From Fistulifera solaris (Eukaryota): DNA of 64,000 bases. This document shows, in pieces, positions 2,635-63,180 of this stretch. Location of the stretch: contig AP026125.1 in NCBI GenBank assembly GCA_030295235.1, positions 1,178,001 to 1,242,000 of the forward strand, written 5' to 3'. The notes below the pieces were generated by a model. The model searched no databases. It was not told the DNA's origin and worked only from the letters and a program-made list of their open reading frames with translations. How positions within the stretch are numbered: position 1 is the stretch's first letter; each line of letters begins with the position of its first letter. The translations under genes were made by a program, and so were the position numbers.

Positions 2635-3972
2635 ATGATACCCGCAGCAGAGAGTCCGCGTGTACAAAGAGCGCTGCTGCTCTTGTTGATTACTCAATTT
2701 TGGACCGGATATTGCTTGTCAACCATCTCGTTTGAATCTTTACAAGGGAAAAACATTCTCGTCATTGGCGGATCGGGACGTGTCGGCGGCAGCGTTGTCA
2801 CACAACTGGTCCAACGTGGCAGCAAAGTATCCGTAGGAGGCACAAGTAGGGATCATTTCTCGCAAGCACAAGCTCGATGGACACGGATCTTCCCTCAATT
2901 TGATTTTCAAAATATTGCATTTCACAAAGTCGATAGAGAAGTGGCGGAATCTATCACTCCCATCATTCAAGACTACGATCTCGTCATCCATACCGCAGGA
3001 CCGTTTCAAGGCAAAGTGAAAACACCCAATGGCGTCTTGGAAGCATGTGTCCGTGCTTCAGTGCCCTACTTGGACGTTTGCGATGATTACTGCACGGCTT
3101 CCGCGGCCAAAGCCAAATACGCAAGTCAAGCCAAAGTTCCTTGCATTGTGTCGACTGGCACGTGGCCGGGCGTTTCTTCCCTTCTGGCCAAGCAGCTGGT
3201 TCATAAAGCGCTTGCCAAAGATCCCTCTCTCCAACCGGCTGATTTGAAAGTTGACTTTGGCTTCTTTACAGCTGGCTCCGGCGGGGCTGGGGTCACACTT
3301 TTAGTAGCTACCTTTCTTATTTTGGCGGAAAAGGCATTGACTATCGTGGACGGTAGAAGAATCCCTGTTCCACCTCTCAAAGACTTTGAATATGTGAATT
3401 TTGGAGACATCGTTGGTGACCGAGCCATTGCGCCTCTCAACTTGCTTGAAACTGCATCCGTTCATGATTACTTGGGTGTGGGGAGCACATCGGCTAAGTT
3501 CGGTACAGCCCCTTCTTATTGGAATACACTGCTTGGATTGTTTGGGTCGATGGTGCCGAAAGAAGTACTGGAGAATGAACCTTTCATGCGTAAACTATCC
3601 GTGTTCAGCATGCCGATTGTTCGAATCGTGGACTTTTTCGCCGGAGCGACAAACGCCATTCGCGTCGATTTGAGTGCCAAAGGCCTGGGCAAACTGGCGA
3701 CTGCTATATATGCCCATGAGAACTTAGAACCGTGCGTGGGTGAAAGCATTATAGCTTTCGCTGCCGCGGCCTTGACGGAATCCGCCGTCCCGCCCGGTGT
3801 ATGGTTTACCGAGGAAGCCATAGCAGCCGGTGACGACTGCGCAGCTGTATTGCATTTGGCGAGTGTTGGAGCGCATACGTGTGTCGTGGAAGGTCTCGAT
3901 CTGAGTAAGGACGAGATTTTTGGAAGTTCCATTAAGCAGCGACCAAAAACGACCAAGTCAGGAAAAAGATAA
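2635..3972 (+). CDS. Saccharopine dehydrogenase-like NAD(P)-binding oxidoreductase
   Basis: 445-aa intact ORF with Rossmann motif ILVIGGSGRVG, plus HTAGPF, PYLDVCDD, TGTWPGVS, AGSGGAG and PPGVWFTEEA, typical of the plant/algal saccharopine-dehydrogenase-like family. Confidence 0.8.
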   Translation: MIPAAESPRVQRALLLLLITQFWTGYCLSTISFESLQGKNILVIGGSGRVGGSVVTQLVQRGSKVSVGGTSRDHFSQAQARWTRIFPQFDFQNIAFHKVDREVAESITPIIQDYDLVIHTAGPFQGKVKTPNGVLEACVRASVPYLDVCDDYCTASAAKAKYASQAKVPCIVSTGTWPGVSSLLAKQLVHKALAKDPSLQPADLKVDFGFFTAGSGGAGVTLLVATFLILAEKALTIVDGRRIPVPPLKDFEYVNFGDIVGDRAIAPLNLLETASVHDYLGVGSTSAKFGTAPSYWNTLLGLFGSMVPKEVLENEPFMRKLSVFSMPIVRIVDFFAGATNAIRVDLSAKGLGKLATAIYAHENLEPCVGESIIAFAAAALTESAVPPGVWFTEEAIAAGDDCAAVLHLASVGAHTCVVEGLDLSKDEIFGSSIKQRPKTTKSGKR

Positions 3973-6797: not shown

Positions 6798-7708
6798 CTA
6801 TAGATCAGTCCACATCTCGGTTGGCGCAGTGTTCGACTTCACTAATGTCAAGCCAGCACTGGAAGCCTTGGGTATTCCAAAGACTTCTTGAAGTATCTCG
6901 TGCGCTTCCTCCTCGGAACTCAAATGACGGATATCAATGGTGGGCTCACCGAATTCAGCAAACCGTGGGGGACCAGTGACCTTAAATCTGCTTCCAGCCA
7001 AAGTATATTTCCTATCCCTCGTCAGCTTGGTCACAACTAACTTCTTCGAAAAGATACTCTCGGGGTGTAAGACACTCTGCAATCCGGCTTGAAAGTCTGA
7101 CAGCGATGGCGACGGACTCAAATGCGATGCCGAATAATTCCATCGCAGTCTTGGAATCATGCGACCCTCCTTTTCCCAATAGAGATAGACAAAGTCCCCG
7201 TCCCGAACTATTTGACTTTTCATGCCTTCGGGCGTAACCTGCATTTTGCAAAGAATTCGTCATCGTATCTCAGCGGATGAAGGGAGGGCTCGCCAAAGCC
7301 AACATCGACAAAGAAAAGGGACTTTTTTGAAGTCCCTTCTTCAGTCACCTCAATACATTGTACCACCAAGATAAGGTGAGAAGCTTCTTCTGATTTGGGA
7401 GTACCATCCTCGAATAACACAGTTCCTGGAACCCGTGTTACTTTGTAACCAATCTCCTCCAACCAATAGCTCAGCAAGCCATTCAGCTCAAAGCAGAACC
7501 CGCCTCGCTTGTGCTCCATCAACTTCGTAACAGTAGCCTCCACGTCGAGACAAGGAAGTTGTGGGCCGACACCGTGCTGAGAAGTGTTCTCGAATGGTAT
7601 GTTGGCCAAATGCGCTTCTTGCACACGGCAAAGATTCTCGTACGTCGGAACGGACAAGTCTAGCGATTGCAGGCCGAGACGAGTAACGTAAAACGGTGTT
7701 AACTTCAT
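6798..7708 (-). CDS. Arylamine N-acetyltransferase family protein (frameshift ~7245)
   Basis: HLANIPFEN, RGGFCFELNGL (catalytic Cys), HLILVV (His) and FVDVGFG (Asp) triad motifs. Confidence 0.88.
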
Positions 7709-8140
7709 AGTACTGCAACCTGCACAACTGCTAGAACGGAAAGCTGAAGTATTTTGTGATTTTGTGAGCTTGATGATTCTTTATCTGTTTCTTTGCATCC
7801 GTCAAGAAAGGAAACGCTCCGCGAACTGTCAGGAAAATCGGAACGAGAGTTTTTGTGCAGGGGAAGTTCGCGGACATTCCGAAAGGTTCTTGATGAAGTA
7901 TAATAACCCCAAAAGCACAAACGGGATAGTGGTTCATTGCTAGGACCTGCAAAATTCAATGTTAATTAGCCGAACGTGTTCTAGTTCTAGAGCTCAAGCA
8001 ATTGATTGGTAATACGAGTAGTTAGATAATACGGAGCATCATTTCTTATTAATTATGAGTTTTTGTCTATGAGCTATGTTCGCAAGCAAGGATGCCGGGA
8101 TAATAAATCCCAGACAGACGAATATCATGAATAGTTTGGT

Positions 8141-9892
8141 CTAGAGTGGCTTTCCCTCAACATTGGCATATCGATCGTGAAGCCTTGCTTCGATGGTCCT
8201 TAGCAGAACATGATTCATGAGAAGCGGCGGCTCTTCCGAGCTGATTTGTATACTGTCAAGAAGAGGATTCAATGATTGAGGTATAGAATCTTGTTGGACA
8301 GATGCCTGGGAATCGTCAACTGTAACACGAAGTATATCAAGGATGTCCTGCCAGTTCAGGAGCTCACTCGAGTCGAGTGCTCCATTGCTTTCTCTTTTCT
8401 GTCGTACGGACATTGCAACTCTCTGAAACAATGTGTCAATCTGAGAACGCGATTCAGTGCGAAGAATGCTGTTAATCATTTCTCTTTCTTTGGCTTCGAT
8501 AAGCCTCCAAGCACATCCGCAAGTTGTACGTATTCCAAAGAAATGAGCTTCCAGAGAAGTAGTCTCCTTGAAAACAAGCTTGCAACAAGAACACTTGAGT
8601 GGATCGTCGCCATTAGCCATTTTTATTCCCAAACGGCTGCATCTGTATCGTGTCAAAGTTGCAGAGCGAGTAATGTTTTCTGTCCGAAAGTTGCGCTGAA
8701 AAGAAGAAGGAAGAAAAGTCGAAGCAGCTGCATGTACTGCCCGCTCCCATGCACGACTTAGCAGCAGCTGAGGGACGTCGTCAGATAATACGTCGACCGT
8801 GCCACTCAATTCTAACGATGACCACTTCTGAAGTTCGTCCTTTTGCTTCTTTGTTCCCGGAATAAGCGCCGAAAGACGAAGTGATTCAAAAGCTAGCGGA
8901 TGTATGCCGTCTCCATGCTCCTGGTCCCATAAAGTATCATCTGGCAAAAACCTTTCTTCGACTTAGATGCCTTTCCGGGTAGTCTGGGCCAAGGTTCATT
9001 CTCAAATCCGTACCGCGTAGTGTATAAGCGACAGTCTTCTCTATGAAGATGTAGACCATCTGCTTTCGCAGTTCGCGTAGTATCTCCTCGTGTCACTTTT
9101 GCTCTATTCCTTTCTGTACTAAGATAATCTTGAATGCGCTGATTTTTGCATTTAAAATCCCAACCGGTACGAATGACGTGTTCCAAACCAGCTAGTTGAT
9201 CAGGTTTTAGGTGAACGGGATGAAAACACACCAGTTCGTCTTTCTCATTAACCTTTTGGATTTGCGCTTTCGTGCCGAGACGGCGGTCTTTTTGGGTTTC
9301 GGCTGTCGGACCGCATCCGCTTTCGCTTTAGGCTTTTTCGCCGAAACAGGGGTCTTTTCTTTAGGTTTAGGTTGTCGCGCCGATTTGGTGGTCTTCTTGG
9401 GCGTTGGGGCACGCGCAGCTGCAGCTGCCTTTTTGCCTTTCGTTCCTTCCCAAATGGGACCTTGAACGGTACCAAATCTCTCGCAGCTATCGACAATCCT
9501 GGGAGATTGAGAATACTCGGTTGTGTATCAGCAGCGCCAGTATTAGTTTGTGCATTAGCATCCTGGGTCGCAGGTTCTGCATTACCATCGTCTGCATCTG
9601 CTGTTCCTTTCTTTTGTTTTTTCTTCGCAGGGACCTTTAGGGGGTTAAAAACTGAAGGAGTTACCGACAACCCAGGGACATTGGGAGTTGTGGGCTGTGC
9701 ATTCGCAGCATTGTTTTGAATTGGATAGCCAAGAGGCATAAAAAATGGGAAAGGAAAGAAAAACTGCGGCATCATAGCATTCGACGTAACAGGTGCTTTA
9801 GCGCTTTCCTCCACTTGACCATGGTCCGACGTGTCGTTTCGTTGATGCTCATTACTGGACTTATCTATTGTTTTCTTTGAAGCGGATTCCAT
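8141..9892 (-). CDS. Hypothetical nuclear protein with Lys/Pro-rich region and a C2H2-like Cys motif (frameshifted)
   Basis: Three abutting minus-strand ORFs with protein-like composition; CSCCKLVFKETTSLEAH in the C-terminal part. Confidence 0.5.
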
Positions 9893-26817: not shown

Positions 26818-28357
26818 ATGAGCGATTCTATGAACAAAGTCGCAGAAGACAACTCTAATGGGCGTAACGAGAGTGATGATCTTCCGGACCCTTTGCTGAC
26901 GCTGCCTTTCAACACTTTGCAAGTCGGCGAACATTTCCTGTTGCATTTCAGCGATGGACGACAAGTGTTCGGCCAGTGTTTAACAAAGGTCAAAGGGATG
27001 ACACCTACTGTCAAGATAAACAAGAGATCCTATCCGACCCACAATTTGATCGGTCTTCCGTACGGAACGGTGTTGGAGGTGGAGAGAAATTTTCTTCTTC
27101 CTTTGCCCGCTGGAGAAGACCTAATTCCGTCGAACCCACTTGCTGCGACGAAAGTAGATGAAGAGATTTCCAACGAGAACGATGCCGGGACAGCAGGAGC
27201 TCGCGAGCGCGACAATCGTCACATAGTTGATACGAACACCTCGCAAGCCTTAGATCAGAAAGAACTGGTCGAACTGAGAAACTCCGGCACAGAAGGCGCA
27301 AAAATTGTTGAGAAAATTATCGAAAACTCATCGACTTTTGCTCAGAAAACCGACTATAGTCGCGCAAAATATGTGGTGAGAAAGCAACAGAAGTATCAGC
27401 CCCGCTGTCGGCTAATAAGATGTACGGGGCCGACTATTTGCGAAGCTATGTTTCTCAAGGATGCCAAGAGAATAATGAATATGCGTGACGACACACTGGG
27501 TCAGATTCTTAGCTACGCGAATGTTAGTGCGGGATGTCAGGTTTTGGTTTGGGAGACGTGTTATGGTATTATAACTGGAACATTGGCTCAGCGCATGGGA
27601 GGTTATGGGCAGATTCTATCTATTTACACTGGTCAGCAGCATTCGTTCAACGAAATTCTCAGCAAATTTAATCTCTCCTTCCCCGAATCTTCTTCAATCA
27701 GCTGGGTTCATAGCGGCGATATCTACAGCAATTCTGATGAGAACGATGATGAAGAAGAAGTTGACGTCGAGAAAAAGGAACGAGAGGTAATTCAGTGGCC
27801 TTGTCCGCTTCAGAATCATACACGAAAATATATTGAAACCTTTCCAACACGAGCAAAGCAAGAGCAATTTTTAATGAAACGAGCAGCCCGGTTTGCGAGA
27901 AAATTGACCCGGAGAACTCCTCTAGAAGCGCGCAGTCAGGTTTTGTCTCGACAAAGTGATTGCGTCGTTGTTGCGGTGCGTTATGACGCAACCGAAACTC
28001 TCCTTGCTCTGCTGCCACATTTGGCACCGTCTTGCCCATTTGTGGTATATTGCGAATTTATTGAGCCCTTGACTCTATGCTTTCTTGAACTACAGCGCAA
28101 AAACCTTGCTGTCAATTTAAGATTAAGCGACACGTGGGCACGGGAGTATCAGATTTTACCGGGGCGGACACACCCGAACATGACTATGAGACAGTCAGGG
28201 GGCTTTTTTACTAACGGGGATTAAATTAGACCCCGTGTTTGGAATCAATGAATTGGACGAAGATTTACTCAAGGAGATTCGACAGCAGATGGGAGGCCGT
28301 AGAGGGAAGCGACCGAGAACACCAAACGCAGACGAGAGTAACAAAAAGACGAAATAA
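26818..28357 (+). CDS. TRM6: tRNA (adenine-58-N1)-methyltransferase non-catalytic subunit (frameshift ~28205)
   Basis: LIGLPYG, RDNRHIVD, IIENSSTFAQKTDYSRAKY, MRDDTLGQILSYANV and WAREYQILPGRTHPNM..SGGF. Confidence 0.92.
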
Positions 28358-43383: not shown

Positions 43384-43583
43384 TATAATCGTTCCTCAAT
43401 AGCTACTTCTTTACGGTCCGTGTAGAACCAGACTTTCGACAGAACAGCAATCAATGGTTGAAGATCATCAAAATAAAGCGGCACGGCATTCAGAAAAGTG
43501 CGAAAAAGGTAATATACTATATGTGCTATAGTCGATTGTTTGTTGACGTCACACACGCACAAAATGGTCTGCGCATCACCCGT

Positions 43584-44093
43584 TGTTGAAATTTCTACCG
43601 CGGTCTGTAACTGCTCTCGGCTATCGGGGACTCCACACACCCCAGACAAAAGACTATTGAAACAACGAACTTTTGCTCCAAACACTCGTTTACAGAATTA
43701 TGACGATTTCCTACGATTACTTTCGCTTTCCTCTTTTCACTGGTCTCCGATCTGATCTTGATCTGATCATGATCCGATCTTGCCAAGTCCATTTCTCCAA
43801 TAACAACTTTAGGATAAAATAGCCCTTTCTGCCAATCCACCAGATTCTCCATTATTGCATGTTCCTTAGCAACTAGCAACAGTCATCGTCCATAATTGCA
43901 TACTGGATTCTTCCGTGATCCCAAATCCCCAAACATATAGTTCGAAACACTTCCGAGACTCCTTTCACGAGTAGAATGCTTTCCCAATAAACTAGGCGGT
44001 CATTTCGAACCATTCCGACATCCGATGACGTGTCAACTCATGACTGAATAAATCTTTCAGTCCGACACTCAACCTCGACCTCGCTCTTTGACA
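43584..44093 (-). repeat. 3' LTR of the copia element (510 bp); purine-rich PPT GGGAGGA abuts it at 44094-44100 on the minus strand
   Basis: tgttgaaatttctacc...ctttgaca; by eye identical to 48451-48959 except for one extra T. Confidence 0.95.
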
Positions 44094-47000
44094 TCCTCCC
44101 TGTCGGCTGCTAAGATTAACTGCGTCATGAGTCCTTCTCTAACAACAGGCACCAAAAGATCATGGATTTTCTCTGTCACATTCTTGGTTTCCAGATCTGC
44201 AATATTCCTTTCCGATCGAATAAACTTCACAACCAGCCTGGCTTCTTCCTTCTCCGTTGCAGCCATCATCTCCCTTATAAAATGCATTCGAATATCAATG
44301 TGTTTCGTCCTATTCCCCACAACTTGGTTTTCCATCAAGAAGATTGCGCCCGTGTTATCTTCAAACAAGGTAGCCGGTCGAATCTTCACCTTCGGAAACA
44401 ATTCTTCGAATAACATCTGCAAAAACTTGATGTCCGTCGCACACGTAGATGCCGCATAATATTCCGCCTCCGTACTTGACAGTGTCACCGCCGGTTGCAA
44501 CTTGCTTGAAAAGCCACACAAACAACCTCCAATGGTAACAAAGTAGCCAGTAACACTTTTCCGCTGACTCCTTGTTCGTAGCAAAGTTTGAATCCACCCA
44601 TGCGTAAACCTTCAAATTAACAGGCTCGCGCAACTTCAGATGAACGTCCGTACTCTCGAGATAGCCAACCAATCTCTTCATCGCTCTCCAATGTTCTTCG
44701 CCTGGCGAATCCATAAACATTGCAAGCTCCCTGACTGCATTTCCACATTCCGGAGCTACTTTCCGCACCAGCCACATGAGACGTCCGAGAAACTTCCGAT
44801 ACTGATCCTTATTAACTGGATCGCCTTCGTTCTTCACAAGCGATTCCCCTGGATAGCCCGGTGTCTTCTCAGCTTTCAACGGTCCAATCAGCTCCTTCCA
44901 ATCCTTTACTATCTCGTCTTTGTACTCATCCATTCGCACTTCGTAGAACTCTCCTGCTTCATCCGATTTTCTCTCGTACCAAACTCCCAAGTGTTTCTGA
45001 ATCGGGCCCATTTCGGTAATGTTGAAGCGCTTCTTGATCTCTCTCTTGAACCAATTGATTTCTTCTTGGGGACCGGCAAGGATACAATCATCGACATACA
45101 CCACAATGATTAGTACTGTCTCGCCGTTCACCACTTTAAACCAGACACACGGATCCGCAGCACTCTGAATAAGCCCCAGCTTCCTCAATTGGGCACAGTA
45201 GAGCATGAAGTACTCTCGTGGACTCTGGACCAAACCGTACATCGCCCTCTCCAATAGGATGATGTAGTCAATTAACTCTTCATGCGTGATGTACCCAAAC
45301 TCATATAGCCCAAAGGGCCATTCAAGATACACCTCCTCTCTCAACTTCGCTTCTAGAAACGCAGCCTCAACGTCAATAACTTCAGTGACCCACATCTTCT
45401 TCCACATGTAAAGTACCACTGCCAAAACCATTCGAACCGACATGTCCGATGCAACAGGTGAATGCGAAGAGTGAAGTCCACACCAGGGATTTGAACAAAC
45501 CCCCCAGCGCACAAGTCCGAGCTTTGAAACGAATTCCCGTTGCCTCTTTCTTCTTTTTGAAAATCCACTTCGGCGTAACAGGCTTCCGTCCTCTCTCCTT
45601 CATCTGCTTTCTAGGAACCATCTTCCAAGCATCTCTTTTAATGAAATTTTCAATCTCCTTCTTCATTGCCTCTTTCCACTTGTCTGCATCCGGACCAACC
45701 AAGGCTTCCTTGTAAGTTTTCGGCGCACCAGGATCCGACGCCAACTCCGTATTCAAAACGTAGTGAAAATAACCTTCCGACACATCGATTGTATTGATCT
45801 CTCCTTTGGCGTTCATTGTTGGATTATATGAAGTGTCCAGCCTTGCCATTTCTCTATTCAGTCTTTTCATCGTCGATTGCGTCTCTTTCCGTTGATTCGG
45901 TGCTGGAGTATTGTCCGCCGTAGCCTCGGGTACCAGAGCTTCCGTAGGACCTTCCACAGCCACTTCGACAACTTCCTCTGCCGCTTTCTCTTCCACAACT
46001 TTCCTCCCTGCTCCAGCATCGACATCTTCGAGCATCACCGGTTTGATTGCGACTTCCTCCCCAATTTGGTCATCCTTTAAGTCGACTTCCATTCCAGCTG
46101 CAAACATCCTTAACTCTGATGCAACTGAAGCACTCGATCCATGCCAGTCTGCCCAAGTGACGTCACGTGAGAGAATGACAATATTTTCATCCGGCTTGTA
46201 AACACGATACGTATCGCCCGCATGCGAATCCGCGTACCCAACCATCACGCATTTCACTGACTTCTTCTCCAACTTGGGCTGTTTGTTTCGTAAAGTCACA
46301 TATCCGATCCGCCCCCACTGAACCAAGTGTTTCAGTATCTTAGGATGCTCGCCGTACCACGCATAATCAGGGCTCGATTCCACATTCCGATTCGGGACAG
46401 CGTTATCCAACTTCGTTGCCGTGTGAACAGCCTCGGGCCATAACTTTCCTTGATGCTCATCCGACAACTTCGCCGCCAACATCATCGCAAGGGCCTTATC
46501 GCGAATTGTCGTGAACTTCCTCTCAACAACACCGTTCATCTGCGGAGTATGCGGGGCAGTAAACTCCATAGTTATGCCCCTCGCCTCACAGATCTCCTTG
46601 AATGTTCCGTTCTCGCCTGCATTATCACACCGAATGTACTTTACGATTACGTTCGGATCTCCTTTCAAGCGATCAAGAAATAGCGTCATGACTTTGCCAA
46701 TCATCGACTTCTTTGTAACGAAGTAACTCCAAGCTTTGCGCGTGTAATCATCCACCAATAAGATCCAGTAGCAACTCTGTCCCAACGATTTCTTGTAGGG
46801 CCCACTCGTGTCCACGTAGAATCGTTCTCCTTTCGCCGTTGCTTTGATAGCCGTCGACTTGCACACCGCCTTTGCTTTCGCCTTCGCATACGCGCACGCC
46901 TCGCATGTCTCCTTGGTTCCAGTTAACTCGATTCCCAACTGTTTCATGAGACTCTTCAAAGGAATGTCGCTTGCGTGTCCGTACATATCGTGCGCAGCAT

Positions 47001-48402
47001 TTATGTCCATCTTCACTTTGGTCTCCACCGCATGGACATCTGACTTAACAACGCTAGCCTTCAAGTAGTATAACCCATAGTGTGACTGAGGTACCGTCAA
47101 CACACTCTTTCCGGAGGGGTCAGTGATCTTCATCGCACAACTGGTTATCTCAATCTTGCACCCTTGCTTCACTAAAGCCCCAGTACTGATAATATTCTTC
47201 GCGAACGTCGGCGCCACCTTGACTTCACTCAACTTCATAGTACCACCCACAGTAGCGAGCATGAGTGTACCCTTCTTGTGTACTTGGACTTCCTTTCCGT
47301 CACCGACGACCAAATACTCCTTCGTCGAAATAACATCGCTCAAAATCGTTTCATCCACAACAACATGGCACGTCGCTCCACTGTCGAGAAGGAACCTTTC
47401 CTTGTCTTTGACTCTCGACACTTCGACCGCGCCAACTTGATGAACGACGCCACAGAACTCTTCGCCGCCTTTGCCGACCTCATAGCACATGCCGACGAAC
47501 ATGTTCAGGTCCTTGTTCTCCGGCTTCGGATCCTTGCCGTTCGACTTGTCCGGACACTCGCGAGAGAAATGGCCTTCCTTGCCACAGTTGAAGCAGACTT
47601 TCTTCTTGTCGCTCTTGCACTCCACTGCCTTGTGTCCTTGTTTGCCGCAGTTGCGGCACTTTCCTTGAACTTCTTCTTAAAACCACCCTTGCCCTTTTCG
47701 ACGTTTAATGCTAAATTTTTATTTTCTTTTTTGTCTTTTTTCTTTTTCTTCGTTTTCTTCATCGTTCTTGGGCTTGAAACAGCGCTTCCACTTGTTCCGG
47801 ATCTCCTTCTCGAGGTCTTCAATCGAGGTCTCGTTGATCTTTCCGCTCAACTTCGTGATCACATCCGAATACTCGTCAGGAAGGTTGGCCAAGTAGTGGG
47901 CCTTCAAAACGAAACTTGGCTTCACATACTGCGATCCGATTGTCTTCAAACGGTTCTGCAACCGATCGCACTCCAGGAAGAACTTGTCAGGGTCATCTTC
48001 CTTCGACGCCAACTTGCACCGTCCGAACTCCGCCAACACTTCCGCCAAATCTTCCTCGCTGTTCCGGGCGTACTTAGCATCCAAAAGCTTGAATGCGTCT
48101 CTCGCATCGCCATCCGCTCTCTTGACAAGACCCAAAGGAACGCCTTCGCACGCAATCACCAACAAATCGATGATCTCGAGATTGCTTCGATACAACTCCT
48201 TGTCCTTCGCCGTCGCCGTCGCTCCCATCGCAACTTCCTTCGTGGGGATCTCGGCCTTCAGGTCATCGAACACACTCGTCCAACCTCTCTTCGTGATCAA
48301 CGACATCGTCTTGAACTTCCAGTCATCGTACGACTTCTCAGCGACCTTGTCGTCCAACGGGTAGAAGGTCAAAGCCCTCATCTTCTCTCCCTCGTCGGTC
48401 AT
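44069..48402 (-). CDS. Copia Gag-Pol polyprotein, broken by several single-base frameshifts
   Basis: ORFs 47719-48402 (gag), 45382-47625 (CCHC, PR, IN), 44361-45512 (RT) and 44069-44584 (RNase H); the stop codon lies inside the 3' LTR. Confidence 0.9.
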
Positions 48403-48450
48403 CTTGTCTTGTCTCGTAAACTTTTTTTCTCAACGCCACGCTTATAAGCG

Positions 48451-48959
48451 TGTTGAAATTCTACCGCGGTCTGTAACTGCTCTCGGCTATCGGGGACTCC
48501 ACACACCCCAGACAAAAGACTATTGAAACAACGAACTTTTGCTCCAAACACTCGTTTACAGAATTATGACGATTTCCTACGATTACTTTCGCTTTCCTCT
48601 TTTCACTGGTCTCCGATCTGATCTTGATCTGATCATGATCCGATCTTGCCAAGTCCATTTCTCCAATAACAACTTTAGGATAAAATAGCCCTTTCTGCCA
48701 ATCCACCAGATTCTCCATTATTGCATGTTCCTTAGCAACTAGCAACAGTCATCGTCCATAATTGCATACTGGATTCTTCCGTGATCCCAAATCCCCAAAC
48801 ATATAGTTCGAAACACTTCCGAGACTCCTTTCACGAGTAGAATGCTTTCCCAATAAACTAGGCGGTCATTTCGAACCATTCCGACATCCGATGACGTGTC
48901 AACTCATGACTGAATAAATCTTTCAGTCCGACACTCAACCTCGACCTCGCTCTTTGACA
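48451..48959 (-). repeat. 5' LTR of the copia element (509 bp)
   Basis: tgttgaaattctacc...ctttgaca, followed by the TSD acccgt. Confidence 0.95.
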
Positions 48960-48996
48960 ACCCGTCGCGCCACAAAAAATGGCGCGAAATAGAAAG

Positions 48997-49065
48997 GACG
49001 TTAAAATTCTGCCTCTCAGTACAAGCTTCTACGTAGGGCCTACGGCGAGGCAGAATTTTAACGTC
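48997..49065. repeat. Perfect 19-bp inverted repeat with 31-nt spacer
   Basis: GACGTTAAAATTCTGCCTC (48997-49015) and GAGGCAGAATTTTAACGTC (49047-49065). Confidence 0.85.
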
Positions 49066-49242
49066 GTTTCAAGAGCTTCGAAAAAATGAGACGGCGGGGC
49101 CTTTTGTGACGATGATAGACACTTTCTTTTGTAAAGGGTGGCTATGGCAAGTACAAGCCTAGCGTTGCTATTGATATCGCTTTTTAACCAACATAGAAAG
49201 ATACAGCAAGCTCTTTTGTAAAATAAAAGTGACTACTGCAGA

Positions 49243-58227: not shown

Positions 58228-60445
58228 TCAGAAATTCTGGACCATCGGTGTTTGCAATCTTACAGAAATTCTGTGGTGGTCCAGAAATTCTGGACCAAGT
58301 TTTTGTTCGATCCTACCGAAATGCTGCAAACGTTCCTGAATAACTGGACACGGTGTTTCGGATCCTACCGAAATGCTATGCACGTTCCAGAAGTTCTGGA
58401 CAAGGCGTTTTCGTTCATAACGAAAGAAAGTGTAAATTCCAGAAATTCTGGAATTGCTACTAGGTATTTCGGATCATACAGAAAATCTGTGGTGGTCCAG
58501 AAATTCTGGACCAAGTTTTTGTTCGATCCTACCGAAATGCTGTAAACGTTCCTGAATAACTGGACACGGTGTTTCGGATCCTACCGGAATGCTGTGCACG
58601 TTCCAGAAGTTCTGGACAAGGCGTTTTCGTTCATAACGAAAGAAAGTGTAAATTCCAGAAATTCTGGAATTGCTACTACGTATTTCGGATCATACAGAAA
58701 ATCTGTGGTGGTCCAGAAATTCTGGACCAAGTTTTTGTTCGATCCTACCGAAATGCTGCAAACGTTCCTGAATTTTTGGACACGGTGTTTCGGATCCTAA
58801 CGAAATGCTATGCACGTTCCAGAAGTTCTGGACACGGTGTTTTCGTTCATAACGAAAGAAAGTGTAAATTCCAGAAATTCTGGAATTGCTACTACGTATT
58901 TCGGATCATACAGAAAATCTGTGGTGGTCCAGAAATTCTGGACCAAGTTTTTGTTCGATCCTACCGAAATGCTGCAAACGTTCCTGAATTTTTGGACACG
59001 GTGTTTCGGATCCTAACGAAATGCTATGCACGTTCCAGAAGTTCTGGACAAGGCGTTTTCGTTCATAACGAAAGAAAGTGTAAATTCCAGAAATTCTGGA
59101 ATTGCTACTACGTATTTCGGATCATACAGAAAATCTGTGGTGGTCCAGAAATTCTGGACCAAGTTTTTGTTCGATCCTACCGAAATGCTGCAAACGTTCC
59201 TGAATAACTGGACACGGTGTTTCGGATCCTACCGAAATGCTATGCACGTTCCAGAAGTTCTGGACAAGGCGTTTTCGTTCATAACGAAAGAAAGTGTAAA
59301 TTCCAGAAATTCTGGAATTGCTACTACGTATTTCGGATCATACAGAAAATCTGTGGTGGTCCAGAAATTCTGGATCAAGTTTTTGTTCGATCCTACCGAA
59401 ATGCTGCAAACGTTCCTGAATTTTTGGACACGGTCTTTCGGATCCTAACGAAATGCTATGCACGTTCCAGAAGTTCTGGACAAGGCGTTTTCGTTCATAA
59501 CGAAAGAAAGTGTAAATTCCAGAAATTCTGGAATTGCTACTACGTATTTTGGATCATACAGAAAATCTGTGGTGGTCCAGAAATTCTGGACCAAGTTTTT
59601 GTTCGATCCTACCGAAATGCTGCAAACGTTCCTGAATAACTGGACACGGTGTTTCGGATCCTACCGGAATGCTGTGCACGTTCCAGAAGTTCTGGACAAG
59701 GCGTTTTCGTTCATAACGAAAGAAAGTGTAAATTCCAGAAATTCTGGAATTGCTACTACGTATTTCGGATCATACAGAAAATCTGTGGTGGTCCAGAAAT
59801 TCTGGACCAAGTTTTTGTTCGATCCTACCGAAATGCTGCAAACGTTCCTGAATTTTTGGACACGGTCTTTCGGATCCTAACGAAATGCTATGCACGTTCC
59901 AGAAGTTCTGGACAAGGCGTTTTCGTTCATAACGAAAGAAAGTGTAAATTCCAGAAATTCTGGAATTGCTACTACGTATTTCGGATCATACAGAAAATCT
60001 GTGGTGGTCCAGAAATTCTGGACCAAGTTTTTGTTCGATCCTACCGAAATGCTGCAAACGTTCCTGAATAACTGGACACGGTGTTTCGGATCCTAACGAA
60101 ATGCTATGCACGTTCCAGAAGTTCTGGACAAGGCGTTTTCGTTCATAACGAAAGAAAGTGTAAATTCCAGAAATTCTGGAATTGCTACTACGTATTTCGG
60201 ATCATACAGAAAATCTGTGGTGGTCCAGAAATTCTGGACCAAGTTTTTGTTCGATCCTACCGAAATGCTGCAAACGTTCCTGAATAACTGGACACGGTGT
60301 TTCGGATCCTACCGGAATGCTGTGCATGTTCCAGAAGTTTCCAGAAGTTCTGGACACGGTGTTTTCGTTCATAACGAAAGAAGGTACATTCTCCAAATTT
60401 CCGGAATGGCTACCTCTGATCACACAGAAATTCTGTGGTGGTCCT
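58228..60445. repeat. 216-bp tandem satellite, ~10 copies, each made of four diverged ~54-bp subunits
   Basis: GTTCCAGAAGTTCTGGACA recurs every 216 bp (58384, 58600, 58816 ... 60112, with a variant at ~60328); subunits of 53+58+53+52 bp each begin with the TCCAGAA-N-TTCTGGA dyad or a degenerate version. Confidence 0.97.
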
Positions 60446-60696: not shown

Positions 60697-63180
60697 ATGA
60701 GATTCTCTAAAGTTGTCGTGCAGGCGCTCGCGCTTCTCCTCGTTCATAGCAATTTCCCTTTTCCTGCGTTTCGTTCGACGGGTAAGTGGCGATCGACCTG
60801 AGGACAAGGTCCGATGACGTGCGCTCTCTTCCTATCGGTCTCTAACTCACGACGCGACAGGCATCACTCTAGCTCAGGCTCAAGAAGCAGGTATCGTCGA
60901 AAAGGGAGAAGTGTACAAGTTTGAAGCCGAAGTGCATCGAATGTTGGACATTGTCGTCAATTCCCTTTATCAGAATAATGACGTCTTCCTCCGAGAGTTG
61001 ATTTCCAATGGAAGCGATGCTATCGATAAGTTCCGATACATGTCTCTCACCGAACCGGAAAAGTATAAAGTTGAAGGAGAAGACGAAGTCCCTCTCGAAG
61101 TCAAAATTGAATACGATGCGGAGGAACAGACACTCACCGTTCGCGATACTGGTATTGGGATGACACACGACGAGCTCGTCAGCAACTTGGGAACCGTAGC
61201 ACGCAGTGGAACGACCAAATTCATGAATGCGTTGAAAGAAAGTGGAAATGCTGACAGCACGATGAGTCAAATTGGTCAGTTCGGTGTGGGCTTTTACTCG
61301 GCGTTTCTCGTCGCCGACAAGGTCACCGTCGCCTCCAAGAGTCCTCTCGATAGCGTGCAGTACGTTTGGGAAAGTGAAAACGGCTCGGCGAGTTTCAATG
61401 TGTATCCGGATCCGCGAGGAAATACGTTGCTACGGGGTACCGAGATTACGTTGCATTTGAAAGAGAATGCGCTCGAGTATGCTGACCCGGACCGTTTACG
61501 AGAATTGGCAAAACATTATTCCGAGTTTGTCGTTTATCCGATTTCGTTGCGTACCACCAAGACGATCCGCGTTCTGGACGAAGAAGAAGAAGATCCGACG
61601 AAAGCGGAAACGGAAGATGACAAGAAAGACGATGAGGAAATTGCCGTCGAAGAGGAAGAAGAAAGTCCCAAGGAGAAAAAGTTCAAGGATCTCAAGACAC
61701 ATCAATACGAAGTGCTGAATGGAAATCCTGCTCTATGGACCCGTGACAAGGAAGATATTTCGGAAGAAGAATACAAATCTTTCTGGCACACACTGGCTGG
61801 TGAACAGGCCGAGGAGTATGTTGGACACAGCCATTTTACGGCAGAAGGAAACATCAATTTCAAATCATTGCTGTACCTCCCGAACGAAGTCCCTGCTCAT
61901 TACAGGCTTGGTAGCATCGATAATGTTGAAAAGGGGATGCGCTTGTTCGTTCGTCGGGTTCTGATCAGTGATTCGTTTGAGCTTTTGCCACGATACCTGG
62001 GTTTTATTCGTGGTGTGGTTGACTCCGACGATCTCCCATTAAACGTCAATCGCGAAACATTGCAAGAAAGCAAAATTCTCCAAGTCATCAAAAGAAAGTT
62101 GTTCGAAAAGCCATTGATATGATCAAACACTTTGCCGATGAAAACGATGAAATCAAGGACGAGCTTGACGACGAGGGCAATCCCATCGAGCCCGACGATC
62201 AGGCCGTATCGAAGTACATTACGTGGTATAAAAAGTTCTCCCCGAACATCAAGCTGGGTGTCATTGAAGACGAACCGAATCGCGCCAAGCTTTCGAAGCT
62301 TCTTCGTTTTCAAACGTCCAAGTCGGAAGGCAAGTTTATCTCTTTAGACAAGTACGTGGAGAACATGAAAGACTGGCAGAAGAACATTTACGTACTTGGA
62401 GGCACGAGCGCTGAAGAGATTGCGAAGTCACCTTTCCTAGAAACGGCTAAAGAAAAAGACGTTGAAGTTTTGTTTTTGACGGATGCCATAGACGAGTATC
62501 TTGTGAAGCAGATTGTTGATTACAAGAACAACAAGTTCATGCACTTGTCTAGTGAAGGCGTCAAGTTCCAAGACGAGTCCGCTGATCTTGTTGCACGACG
62601 AGAAAAATACTACAGAAAGAAATTCAAGCCGCTTATTGAATGGCTTCGAAAGCTGTATCAGGGGTCGGTCTTACGTGTCCAAGTTGCCAAGCGCAGTCTT
62701 GGTCAAATTCCAGCGGTTGTTTCCAGCTCGGACTTTGGCAACAGCGCTAATATGGAGCGCATTCTGAGAGCCCAGGCATTTCAACACGGTGTGGATGAGA
62801 GGGGATACATGGCCATGAAAGTTTTCGAAATCAATCCACGTCACCCTTTGATCGTCAAGCTTTTCGAAGGCGTGGGATCCGGAGACGACGACGTATCACA
62901 AGATTTGATTGATGCTGCATTGATGATTCACGATATGGCAATGTTGAATGGCGGCTTTCCAATTGGTGATCCAGTGGCTCATAACAATAGGTTGTTGAAG
63001 GTGCTACAGGGAAGCTTCGGATTGGATAGCTTGGCGTTAGAACCGGAGTTGGATCCAGCAGAGTTCGAAGAGGATGAAGAAGAAAGTCCAAAAACTACCG
63101 CGGGTGGGCTAAACGCCGAGGATTTCGAAGAGTTGAACATTAATGATCTTATCATCGATGCGGACAAAGACGAGTTATAA
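60697..63180 (+). CDS. HSP90B1: Endoplasmin / GRP94 (ER Hsp90), intron 60782-60860, frameshift ~62100
   Basis: Signal peptide; FEAEVHRMLDIVVNSLY, FLRELISNGSDAIDK, IGQFGVGFYSAFLVAD, GVVDSDDLPLNVNRETLQ; C-terminal KDEL. Confidence 0.95.

Follow-up and report, generated by a model that had tools for sequence, protein, structure and literature searches.

How does a retrotransposon begin its minus-strand DNA when the place beside its 5′ long terminal repeat (LTR), where a tRNA primer would be expected to pair, is taken by a palindrome? For LTR elements, three ways of starting this strand are established: from the 3′ end of a tRNA, from a tRNA half, or by self-priming of the Tf1 type. The question is raised by a Ty1/copia element in a stretch of 64,000 nucleotides from Fistulifera solaris (GenBank assembly GCA_030295235.1, contig AP026125.1, positions 1,178,001 to 1,242,000 of the forward strand), which was analysed as a whole and is hereafter called the window, with positions counted from its first letter. 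We conclude with high confidence that this palindrome, at the site of the primer, is conserved and functional. Its role is argued more tentatively: the explanation we favour, with confidence falling a little short of even, is that it may be a self-encoded, self-complementary, tRNA-independent primer site, which would act through the pairing of two element RNAs. Contigs of public sequencing runs (X1, X2 and X3, with X1 and X2 coming from two studies) were compared with the window, and the features on which the argument turns are these:

43584..48959, minus strand: complete Ty1/copia LTR retrotransposon, 5,376 bp, recognized by its LTR pair, the order of its Pfam domains and X3 contigs that depart at both ends.
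48451..48959, minus strand: 5′ LTR, 509 nt, TGTCAAAG...TTTCAACA, from its alignment to the 3′ LTR.
48439..48450, minus strand: core 12-nt palindrome CGCTTATAAGCG, the proposed equivalent of a primer-binding site, beginning at the first base after the CA of the LTR.
48437..48452, minus strand: extended 16-nt palindrome CACGCTTATAAGCGTG, which takes in the LTR-terminal CA, from a palindrome scan.
48452..48458, minus strand: stem strand TTTCAAC at the end of U5 (the last part of the LTR), enclosing the palindrome in the predicted fold.
48428..48434, minus strand: leader stem strand GTTGAGA, the partner of TTTCAAC in the predicted fold.
47719..48402, minus strand: gag open reading frame, 227 aa, from Pfam, with an N-terminus that fits the gag profile of relatives.

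Read along the minus strand, positions 48460..48428 are AATTTCAACA CGCTTATAAGCG TGGCGTTGAGA, so that the palindrome begins at the base next to the LTR's CA and is followed by TGGCGTTGAGA, an A run and, 36 nt beyond the palindrome, the gag ATG. A preliminary description of the locus, made from the letters alone, had pointed to a perfect 16-nt palindrome at the LTR edge and to its extension by pairing of UUUCAAC with GUUGAGA. Both were recovered, the former as CACGCTTATAAGCGTG (48452..48437) and the latter in the predicted fold (48458-48452 paired with 48434-48428). The same description saw no canonical tRNA site by the LTR, no complement of the site inside the LTR and a geometry unlike that of Tf1, and this too was borne out: TGG is absent from the first 12 nt after the LTR, the earliest one starting 12 nt downstream, and no second copy of the palindrome with at most two mismatches was found in the 648 nt upstream of the window site. 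Contigs of both X1 and X2 span the site, and the sole difference listed there is a 1-nt indel in an A/T run at 48458.

Taken alone, the window palindrome is not beyond chance. Palindromes of at least 12 nt number 19 in the window against 16.3 in shuffles, and those of at least 16 nt number 3 against 0.95. The 61-nt hairpin reaches -10.8 kcal/mol, and 47 of 200 shuffles fold equally well (z = -0.57), a value that is not unusual and for which hairpin stability was dropped as an argument. Because the window counts and the hairpin score lie near chance, what makes the palindrome significant is solely its precise placement against the LTR edge and its conservation among relatives.

That conservation was sought with a protease-integrase profile, which yielded 79 metagenome loci with related polyproteins (25-53% identity), and the loci were also scanned by fuzzy search and for palindromes. 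A layout recurs among them, consisting of an LTR-like end (...TTTAACA, ...TTCTAACA or ...TCCAACA), an immediately following perfect palindrome, and the ATG of gag or gag-pol 13-235 nt further on. For the count, leaders were located without reference to palindromes, by a profile of the gag N-terminus. This profile found 42 gag starts in the 79 loci, of which the 40 with more than 80 nt upstream were counted. A CA with an immediately adjoining perfect palindrome of at least 10 nt stands within 300 nt in 36 of the 40 leaders, compared with 113 of 5000 control windows (2.3%) from the same loci. Together with the coverage of the site by X1 and X2 contigs, this count rules out chance or an assembly artefact. 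It also answers the concern, voiced in the preliminary description, that sister copies might have an ordinary TGG site and no palindrome: in 36 of the 40 related gag leaders a palindrome comes directly after CA.

Some details of the tally deserve mention. In L035 and L036 it took another palindrome of equal length in the leader, and both loci also have a CG-type palindrome after ..AACA. The exceptions to the count are four. L002 holds a tandem pair, with CGCTTGCAAGCG in one copy and TACTTGCAAGCG in the other, a decayed copy beside an intact sister (at ~1018-1035, the first copy has TA in place of CG and the second is intact). In L022 (~3375-3390), which reads CATTTAAACA, both terminal CpGs read CpA. 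The changes in these two loci follow the pattern expected of CpG decay in dead copies. L018 has CA and then an 18-nt palindrome with one mismatch, and L069 has CGCTAGCG, a palindrome of 8 nt, or 10 nt counting its A..T. Across the family the palindrome is typically 12 nt long (range 10-16) and mostly CG-clamped, and in L076 a terminal repeat ends exactly before it. At some loci a second, different palindrome overlaps or abuts the first (L025:4199-4220, L028:1181-1215, L033:1824-1850, L041:245-270 and L050:3928-3949), for example CGCTAATTAGCG then CGCTAGCTAGCG, or CGTTTTAAAACG then ACGTTATAGCTATAACGT.

The outgroup locus L074 (27% identity) has an ordinary site of the initiator-methionine tRNA (iMet) type, CA followed by TGGTATCAGAGC. 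A canonical site of this type was sought in all loci and found only there; in another outgroup locus, L077, the upstream region offers no readable LTR edge. A quick maximum-likelihood tree built on the integrase region (62 rows, SH-aLRT support, arbitrary root) has a branch with 100% support that splits L074, L075 and L077 from the other 59 rows. These 59 are made up of the 38 rows with a palindrome, none of which falls elsewhere, and 21 from contigs that do not reach the junction. A single origin of the palindromic site is compatible with these data, not proven by them, and our best reading is that the putative primer site is common to a deep clade of diatom-type Copia elements. At L021:1988-1999, 3 nt after the palindrome, stands TGGTAAGAGAGC, two mismatches from TGGTATCAGAGC. 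This look-alike may be due to chance or be part of the leader stem, and a relic of an ancestral tRNA site is also conceivable.

What is conserved at the junction is palindromy rather than a sequence. Seventeen distinct palindromes occupy the site, including the window's own and an AT-rich one in L047, and all 17 are self-complementary through the centre. Examples are CGTTTTAAAACG, CGTTTATAAACG, CGCTAATTAGCG, CGCTTTAAAGCG, CGCTTGCAAGCG and CGTTTGCAAACG, and further CGTTTCGAAACG, CGTTTGATCAAACG, CGCTTAGCTAAGCG, TACTTTAAAGTA, TACTTCGAAGTA and TAATAATTATTA. Their centres include TTATAA, TAATTA, TTTAAA, TTGCAA, TTCGAA and TGATCA, and the third position varies as well. Among relatives with a junction, L009 stands closest to the window element (57% identity across 212 columns of the integrase); its LTR ends identically, and its palindrome departs from that of the window only in a central TA/AT swap.

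The preliminary description had proposed aligning LTR-adjacent sequences of related elements for compensatory changes, and such changes are indeed present. In the ungapped alignment A3, made of 29 twelve-nt sites chosen as perfect palindromes, five of the six pairs show changes on both sides. Depending on position, the pair types are C-G/U-A, G-C/A-U or U-A/C-G/A-U, and the central pair is UA in 13 sites, AU in 11, CG in 3 and GC in 2. When partners are slid as a control, pairing falls to 28-51%. An A..T extension of the palindrome occurs in 15 of the 29 aligned sequences, the outer C/G pair of the window is not general, and the columns downstream of the palindrome show no conservation in this alignment. 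The palindromes are also strand-asymmetric (A3 columns 11-22), with a pyrimidine- or T-rich 5′ half (CG-Y-T-T..) and a purine- or A-rich 3′ half (..A-A-R-CG). T14/A19 is invariant in 29 of 29 sites, and no site has the opposite orientation; in its purine richness the 3′ half is reminiscent of a polypurine tract.

Around the palindrome, a second layer of pairing is found. Stems flank primer sites in retroviruses and Tf1, and here the last 18 nt of each LTR were paired with the 30 nt after the palindrome, either of the same locus or of other loci. Pairing of U5 with its own leader averages -10.7 kcal/mol against -6.0 kcal/mol with foreign leaders, and none of 2000 permutations is as low. The pairs include G-U, and the stem sequence varies among loci while the pairing is kept. 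A U5-leader stem of varying sequence thus encloses the palindrome family-wide.

An arrangement of this kind has been reported before, in fungi, and the comparisons with published systems made here draw on parts of the cited papers. In fungal GalEa Copia elements, the part of the report concerned (PMC5445492, 2017) describes no tRNA site but a palindrome that includes the last A of the LTR (..CA followed by CTGATCAGT or CTAATTAGT). There, the two variants differ by a compensatory pair, a U5 complement is absent, and a second sequence, CHSeq2, inverse-complementary with an A/A mismatch, lies 12-41 bp downstream; according to its authors, no described priming model fits this ‘Conserved Hairpin Site’ (PMC5445492). 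The likeness lies in the anatomy of the site: a Ty1/copia element with TG..CA LTRs, no tRNA-type site, and a palindrome that abuts the 5′ LTR and can include its final A (the window form includes CA, and the A..T form of the relatives includes that A). Unlike the GalEa site as described there, the diatom-type palindrome is longer, CG-clamped and far more diverse, with its 17 forms. Its U5 end pairs with the leader, its hosts are diatom-like rather than Pezizomycotina, and a CHSeq2-like copy (at most two mismatches, within 700 nt downstream) occurs in 0 of 36 elements, with partial copies only in L010 and L011. In those two loci half of the palindrome (GTTTGAT) is repeated 5 nt downstream, which resembles fungal CHSeq2. 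The feature is therefore a further form of the arrangement already reported in GalEa and is not categorically new. For diatom elements, we found no description of a palindromic primer site in the open-access literature (PMC, bioRxiv); the parts consulted of Maumus et al. 2009 (PMC2806351), a paper on the CoDi groups (CoDi1-7) of diatom Copia elements, contain no mention of a tRNA or primer-binding site, and those of a 2025 preprint on diatom transposable elements no mention of a primer site, palindrome or tRNA.

How might such a site prime? U5 ends where minus-strand DNA begins. As the LTR ends exactly before the palindrome, the last base of the primer should pair with the first base of the palindrome. 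The only known complement of a family-specific palindrome is the palindrome itself, which points to a self-derived primer, and a primer that is the element's own sequence would leave the site free to drift as long as both halves change together. In the mechanism we favour, the last 7-9 nt of U5 would pair with the leader, and this stem would present a palindrome whose own hairpin is too weak to form. If two element RNAs are packaged together, their palindromes could then join in a 12-bp duplex, one strand of which would be cut where the palindrome ends on its 3′ side (behind ...GCG), in the way that the RNase H of Tf1 cuts its RNA:RNA duplex. The new 3′-OH, clamped by the terminal C-G pairs, would be extended on the partner RNA, and minus-strand DNA would start opposite the terminal A of the LTR, fixing the LTR end at ...CA before the palindrome.

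A duplex of two RNAs is favoured over a hairpin on three grounds. The centre of the palindrome is always self-complementary, although the loop of a hairpin need not be. For sites of 12-14 nt, predicted hairpins reach 0 to -3.5 kcal/mol (UACUUUAAAGUA 0.0, UAAUAAUUAUUA 0.0 and CGUUUUAAAACG -0.1 kcal/mol), whereas self-duplexes reach -7 to -24 kcal/mol. Finally, a dimer-initiation loop has the same layout: a closing stem whose tip carries a palindrome with little structure of its own.

Several points weigh against this two-RNA mechanism. We infer the priming itself, the pairing between two RNAs, the cut, the enzyme and the uncut partner RNA from sequence, and the data of all four runs compared are assembled contigs, which cannot show molecule ends. 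An RNA cut behind the palindrome is no longer a full template, and a second, uncut RNA is required. A strict Watson-Crick palindrome without G-U pairs is also expected from a constraint at the DNA level. In the window element, the U5-leader stem (-7.2 kcal/mol) is no better than chance, with 15 of 33 foreign leaders as good. The LTR edges of the relatives are mostly deduced from the conserved ...AACA, with proof from an LTR pair in L076 only. The 100% pairing in A3 holds by construction of the set, so that pair-type diversity and the gag-anchored count are the only results free of its selection bias. The search for host tRNAs covered the window, and ARAGORN found none in its 64 kb.

Could the palindrome instead be solely a dimerisation or packaging signal, with priming left to another primer? 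We consider this unlikely, if worth serious weight. Retroviral dimer-initiation palindromes and the Ty1 PAL palindromes are about 6 nt long and coexist with a separate tRNA site, whereas here the palindrome takes the place of the primer site, and no separate site can be seen. The architecture, a palindrome presented by a closing stem, suits such a signal, as do the strong self-duplex and weak hairpin. Like the retroviral sites (that of HIV-1 among them) and Ty1 PAL, this is a stem-presented palindrome of the 5′ leader able to pair two genomic RNAs, and a dimer initiation site was also considered for the fungal case in the part of the GalEa report drawn on here (PMC5445492). Yet the interval from the LTR to gag, with a leader of 13-235 nt in the relatives and 36 nt after the palindrome in the window, offers no further candidate for a primer site. 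Moreover, an LTR that ends exactly at the palindrome puts the 3′ end of the primer there, and any foreign primer would need a site whose sequence changes from family to family.

Fold-back self-priming in cis, the first suggestion of the preliminary description, shares its geometry with the two-RNA mechanism: the RNA would be cut behind the palindrome, and the hairpin would be extended from its 3′-OH with its own U5 as template. It accounts for position and conservation no less well, and the 16-nt form of the window folds at -6.8 kcal/mol as a hairpin and stacks on the U5-leader stem. A hairpin, however, requires an unpaired loop of at least 3 nt, and the central 2-4 bases are self-complementary in every member of the family. 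For most family palindromes the hairpin energy is about zero, and the cut would lose the leader strand of the flanking stem. Of the original suggestion, then, the geometry stands, but two paired RNAs are a likelier form of it than a hairpin; we regard fold-back in cis as distinctly unlikely.

The palindrome might also act in DNA, by binding a dimeric protein or by forming a structure in single-stranded DNA during strand transfer, but such a role appears improbable. It would account for the exclusive use of Watson-Crick pairs, with no G-U, in the selected A3 set, and for the strand asymmetry with its T-rich 5′ half, A-rich 3′ half and invariant T14/A19. Protein sites, though, keep particular bases, whereas here the bases vary and complementarity stays, and both the exact abutment on the LTR and the G-U-containing flanking stem point to RNA.

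The preliminary description had also proposed that a 5′ half or 5′ exon of tRNA-Ile(UAU) could serve as the primer, and this idea finds no support in the comparison with relatives. Half-tRNA (iMet) primer sites are used by copia and Ty5. The plant Osser lineage belongs to the same class (Osser/Bryco iMet), as does the plant Bianca lineage, which has half-tRNA-Ile sites; these are Copia elements whose site is likewise not complementary to a tRNA 3′ end (PMC6317226, in the part used here). Furthermore, the complement of the window site contains CUUAUAA, which resembles the anticodon loop of Ile-UAU. The sites of half-tRNA elements are, however, fixed by a host tRNA and non-palindromic, while here the sequence varies and palindromy is kept: the relatives have other centres and third positions, and a fixed host tRNA is disfavoured because both halves of the palindrome change together. 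An even-length perfect palindrome is incompatible with an anticodon arm that has a 7-nt loop, the downstream region that would be complementary to the D arm is not conserved, and the upstream continuation in the tRNA sense is a U run, unlike a D loop. A tRNA-Ile half is accordingly very improbable.

The gap between an LTR and a tRNA primer site is normally 0-5 nt. An ordinary tRNA 3′ end (of a tRNA ending ...UCUCAACGCCA) pairing with TGGCGTTGAGA is hardly credible, since although TGGCG is the usual start of a complement to ...CGCCA-3′, its 12-nt distance from the LTR far exceeds that gap and would shift the LTR end, TGG is found at that place in none of the relatives with listed junctions, and the TGGCG region is the leader strand of the U5-leader stem.

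Self-priming of the Tf1 type was rejected. Tf1 has a site complementary to the first ~11 nt of its transcript, whereas the site described here is complementary to itself. None of the 36 elements has a second palindrome copy with at most two mismatches in the stretch of up to 700 nt upstream, a search made without a mapped transcription start, and in the same 36 the longest words shared exactly reach no greater length upstream of the palindrome than downstream. A broader likeness to Tf1/sushi elements and to the plant TAR elements Houba and Osr-1 lies in a tRNA-independent primer from the element's own RNA, placed beside U5 in a stem, as far as the relevant parts of PMC5445492 and PMC6317226 describe it.

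The element that carries the window site is Ty1/copia (Pseudoviridae-type) by domain order, LTRs, target duplication and polypurine tract. Its remaining features are as follows:

43584..44093, minus strand: 3′ LTR, 510 nt, TGTCAAAG...TTTCAACA, from the LTR alignment and breaks in X1 unitigs.
48960..48965, minus strand: target-site duplication ACGGGT, upstream copy, read directly, with the same 6 nt after the 3′ LTR.
43578..43583, minus strand: target-site duplication ACGGGT, downstream copy, read directly.
44069..47676, minus strand: pol region (CCHC, protease, integrase, reverse transcriptase, RNase H) in three overlapping frames, from open reading frames and Pfam.
44094..44101, minus strand: polypurine tract AGGGAGGA, directly 5′ of the 3′ LTR, read directly.

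The LTRs end in TG..CA, and after the CA the 5′ LTR runs into CGCTTATAAGCG and the 3′ LTR into ACGGGT. The target duplication is 6 bp, where 5 bp is usual for Ty1/copia. In a pairwise alignment of the two LTRs (509 and 510 nt) the sole difference is one A in a short A run. The element is a young one. Pfam domains follow the order Retrotran_gag_2 (a weak match), zf-CCHC, Pol_BBD, gag_pre-integrs, rve and SH3_retrovirus, with RVT_2 downstream. Two CCHC knuckles and a protease are also among the parts detected by Pfam, in Copia order, while the RNase H open reading frame has no Pfam match. A Fragilaria protein is among the protein matches of the element.

Because X3 contigs cease matching exactly at 43584 and 48959 and enter other flanks, the LTR ends are settled independently of the window assembly; the breaks in X1 unitigs fall about 30 nt within the two LTR edges, where a repeat boundary would lead one to expect them. 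Against the window, X1 and X2 contigs show 1-2-nt indels at 47664, 45505, 45466 and 44565, near the three frame breaks of the polyprotein, and these breaks may therefore be assembly errors or private to the window copy. Together with the homopolymer difference between the LTRs, the indels reflect either assembly errors of the homopolymer type or a slightly damaged copy.

The surroundings of the element offer further observations. Just upstream of the 5′ LTR, at 48992-49070, lies a stretch of about 78 nt with the inverted repeat TTAAAATTCTGCCTC ... GAGGCAGAATTTTAA. In X1 its summed contig depth is about 7,000-9,000, against 150-400 for the Copia element, with many variant letters and loose ends on both sides. 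It looks like a very high-copy hairpin repeat or a repeat similar to a miniature inverted-repeat transposable element, into or beside which the Copia element inserted. Neighbouring host genes encode ESF1, Gcd10p/TRM6, a GPN-loop GTPase and HSP90. The GPN-loop GTPase shares 70% identity with a Phaeodactylum protein, and its other named relatives are from Mayamaea, Epithemia, Amphora and Seminavis, which identifies the host as a pennate diatom. Gcd10p/TRM6, whose gene lies at 26818-28224, 16 kb from the element, is a subunit of the tRNA m1A58 methyltransferase, and in tRNA-primed elements it is m1A58 that stops the synthesis of plus-strand strong-stop DNA; no connection with the Copia element is meant. 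The interval 58248-60275, between the genes for the GPN-loop GTPase and HSP90, is a tandem array of a 216-bp unit in roughly nine and a half copies, 95-97% identical. HSP90 itself (60941-63180) consists of two open reading frames, 60941-62122 and 62119-63180, which overlap by 4 nt; the split may reflect a frameshift, a sequencing error or a short intron.

For the palindrome that stands in for a primer-binding site in fungal GalEa elements, we know of no accepted mechanism. The arrangement is now seen in an unrelated host group, with much greater sequence diversity and with changes matched on both halves, and the pattern yields a testable constraint, namely a duplex of two identical strands rather than a hairpin loop. 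Because Phaeodactylum and other diatoms can be transformed and harbour active Copia elements, the mechanism is directly testable. For annotation, LTR programs that depend on a match to a tRNA will report no primer site in these abundant diatom elements.

Beyond this, it is possible, though speculative, that this deep, widespread clade abandoned host tRNA primers altogether, that a partner copy of the RNA primes instead, and that dimerisation and priming are thereby united at one site, with the palindrome as the private key of each family. If true, such a key would bar other families and non-autonomous parasites from the machinery of the element, and it would explain how 17 palindromes arose by paired changes. 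The same logic would then also solve the unexplained ‘Conserved Hairpin Site’ of the fungal GalEa elements.

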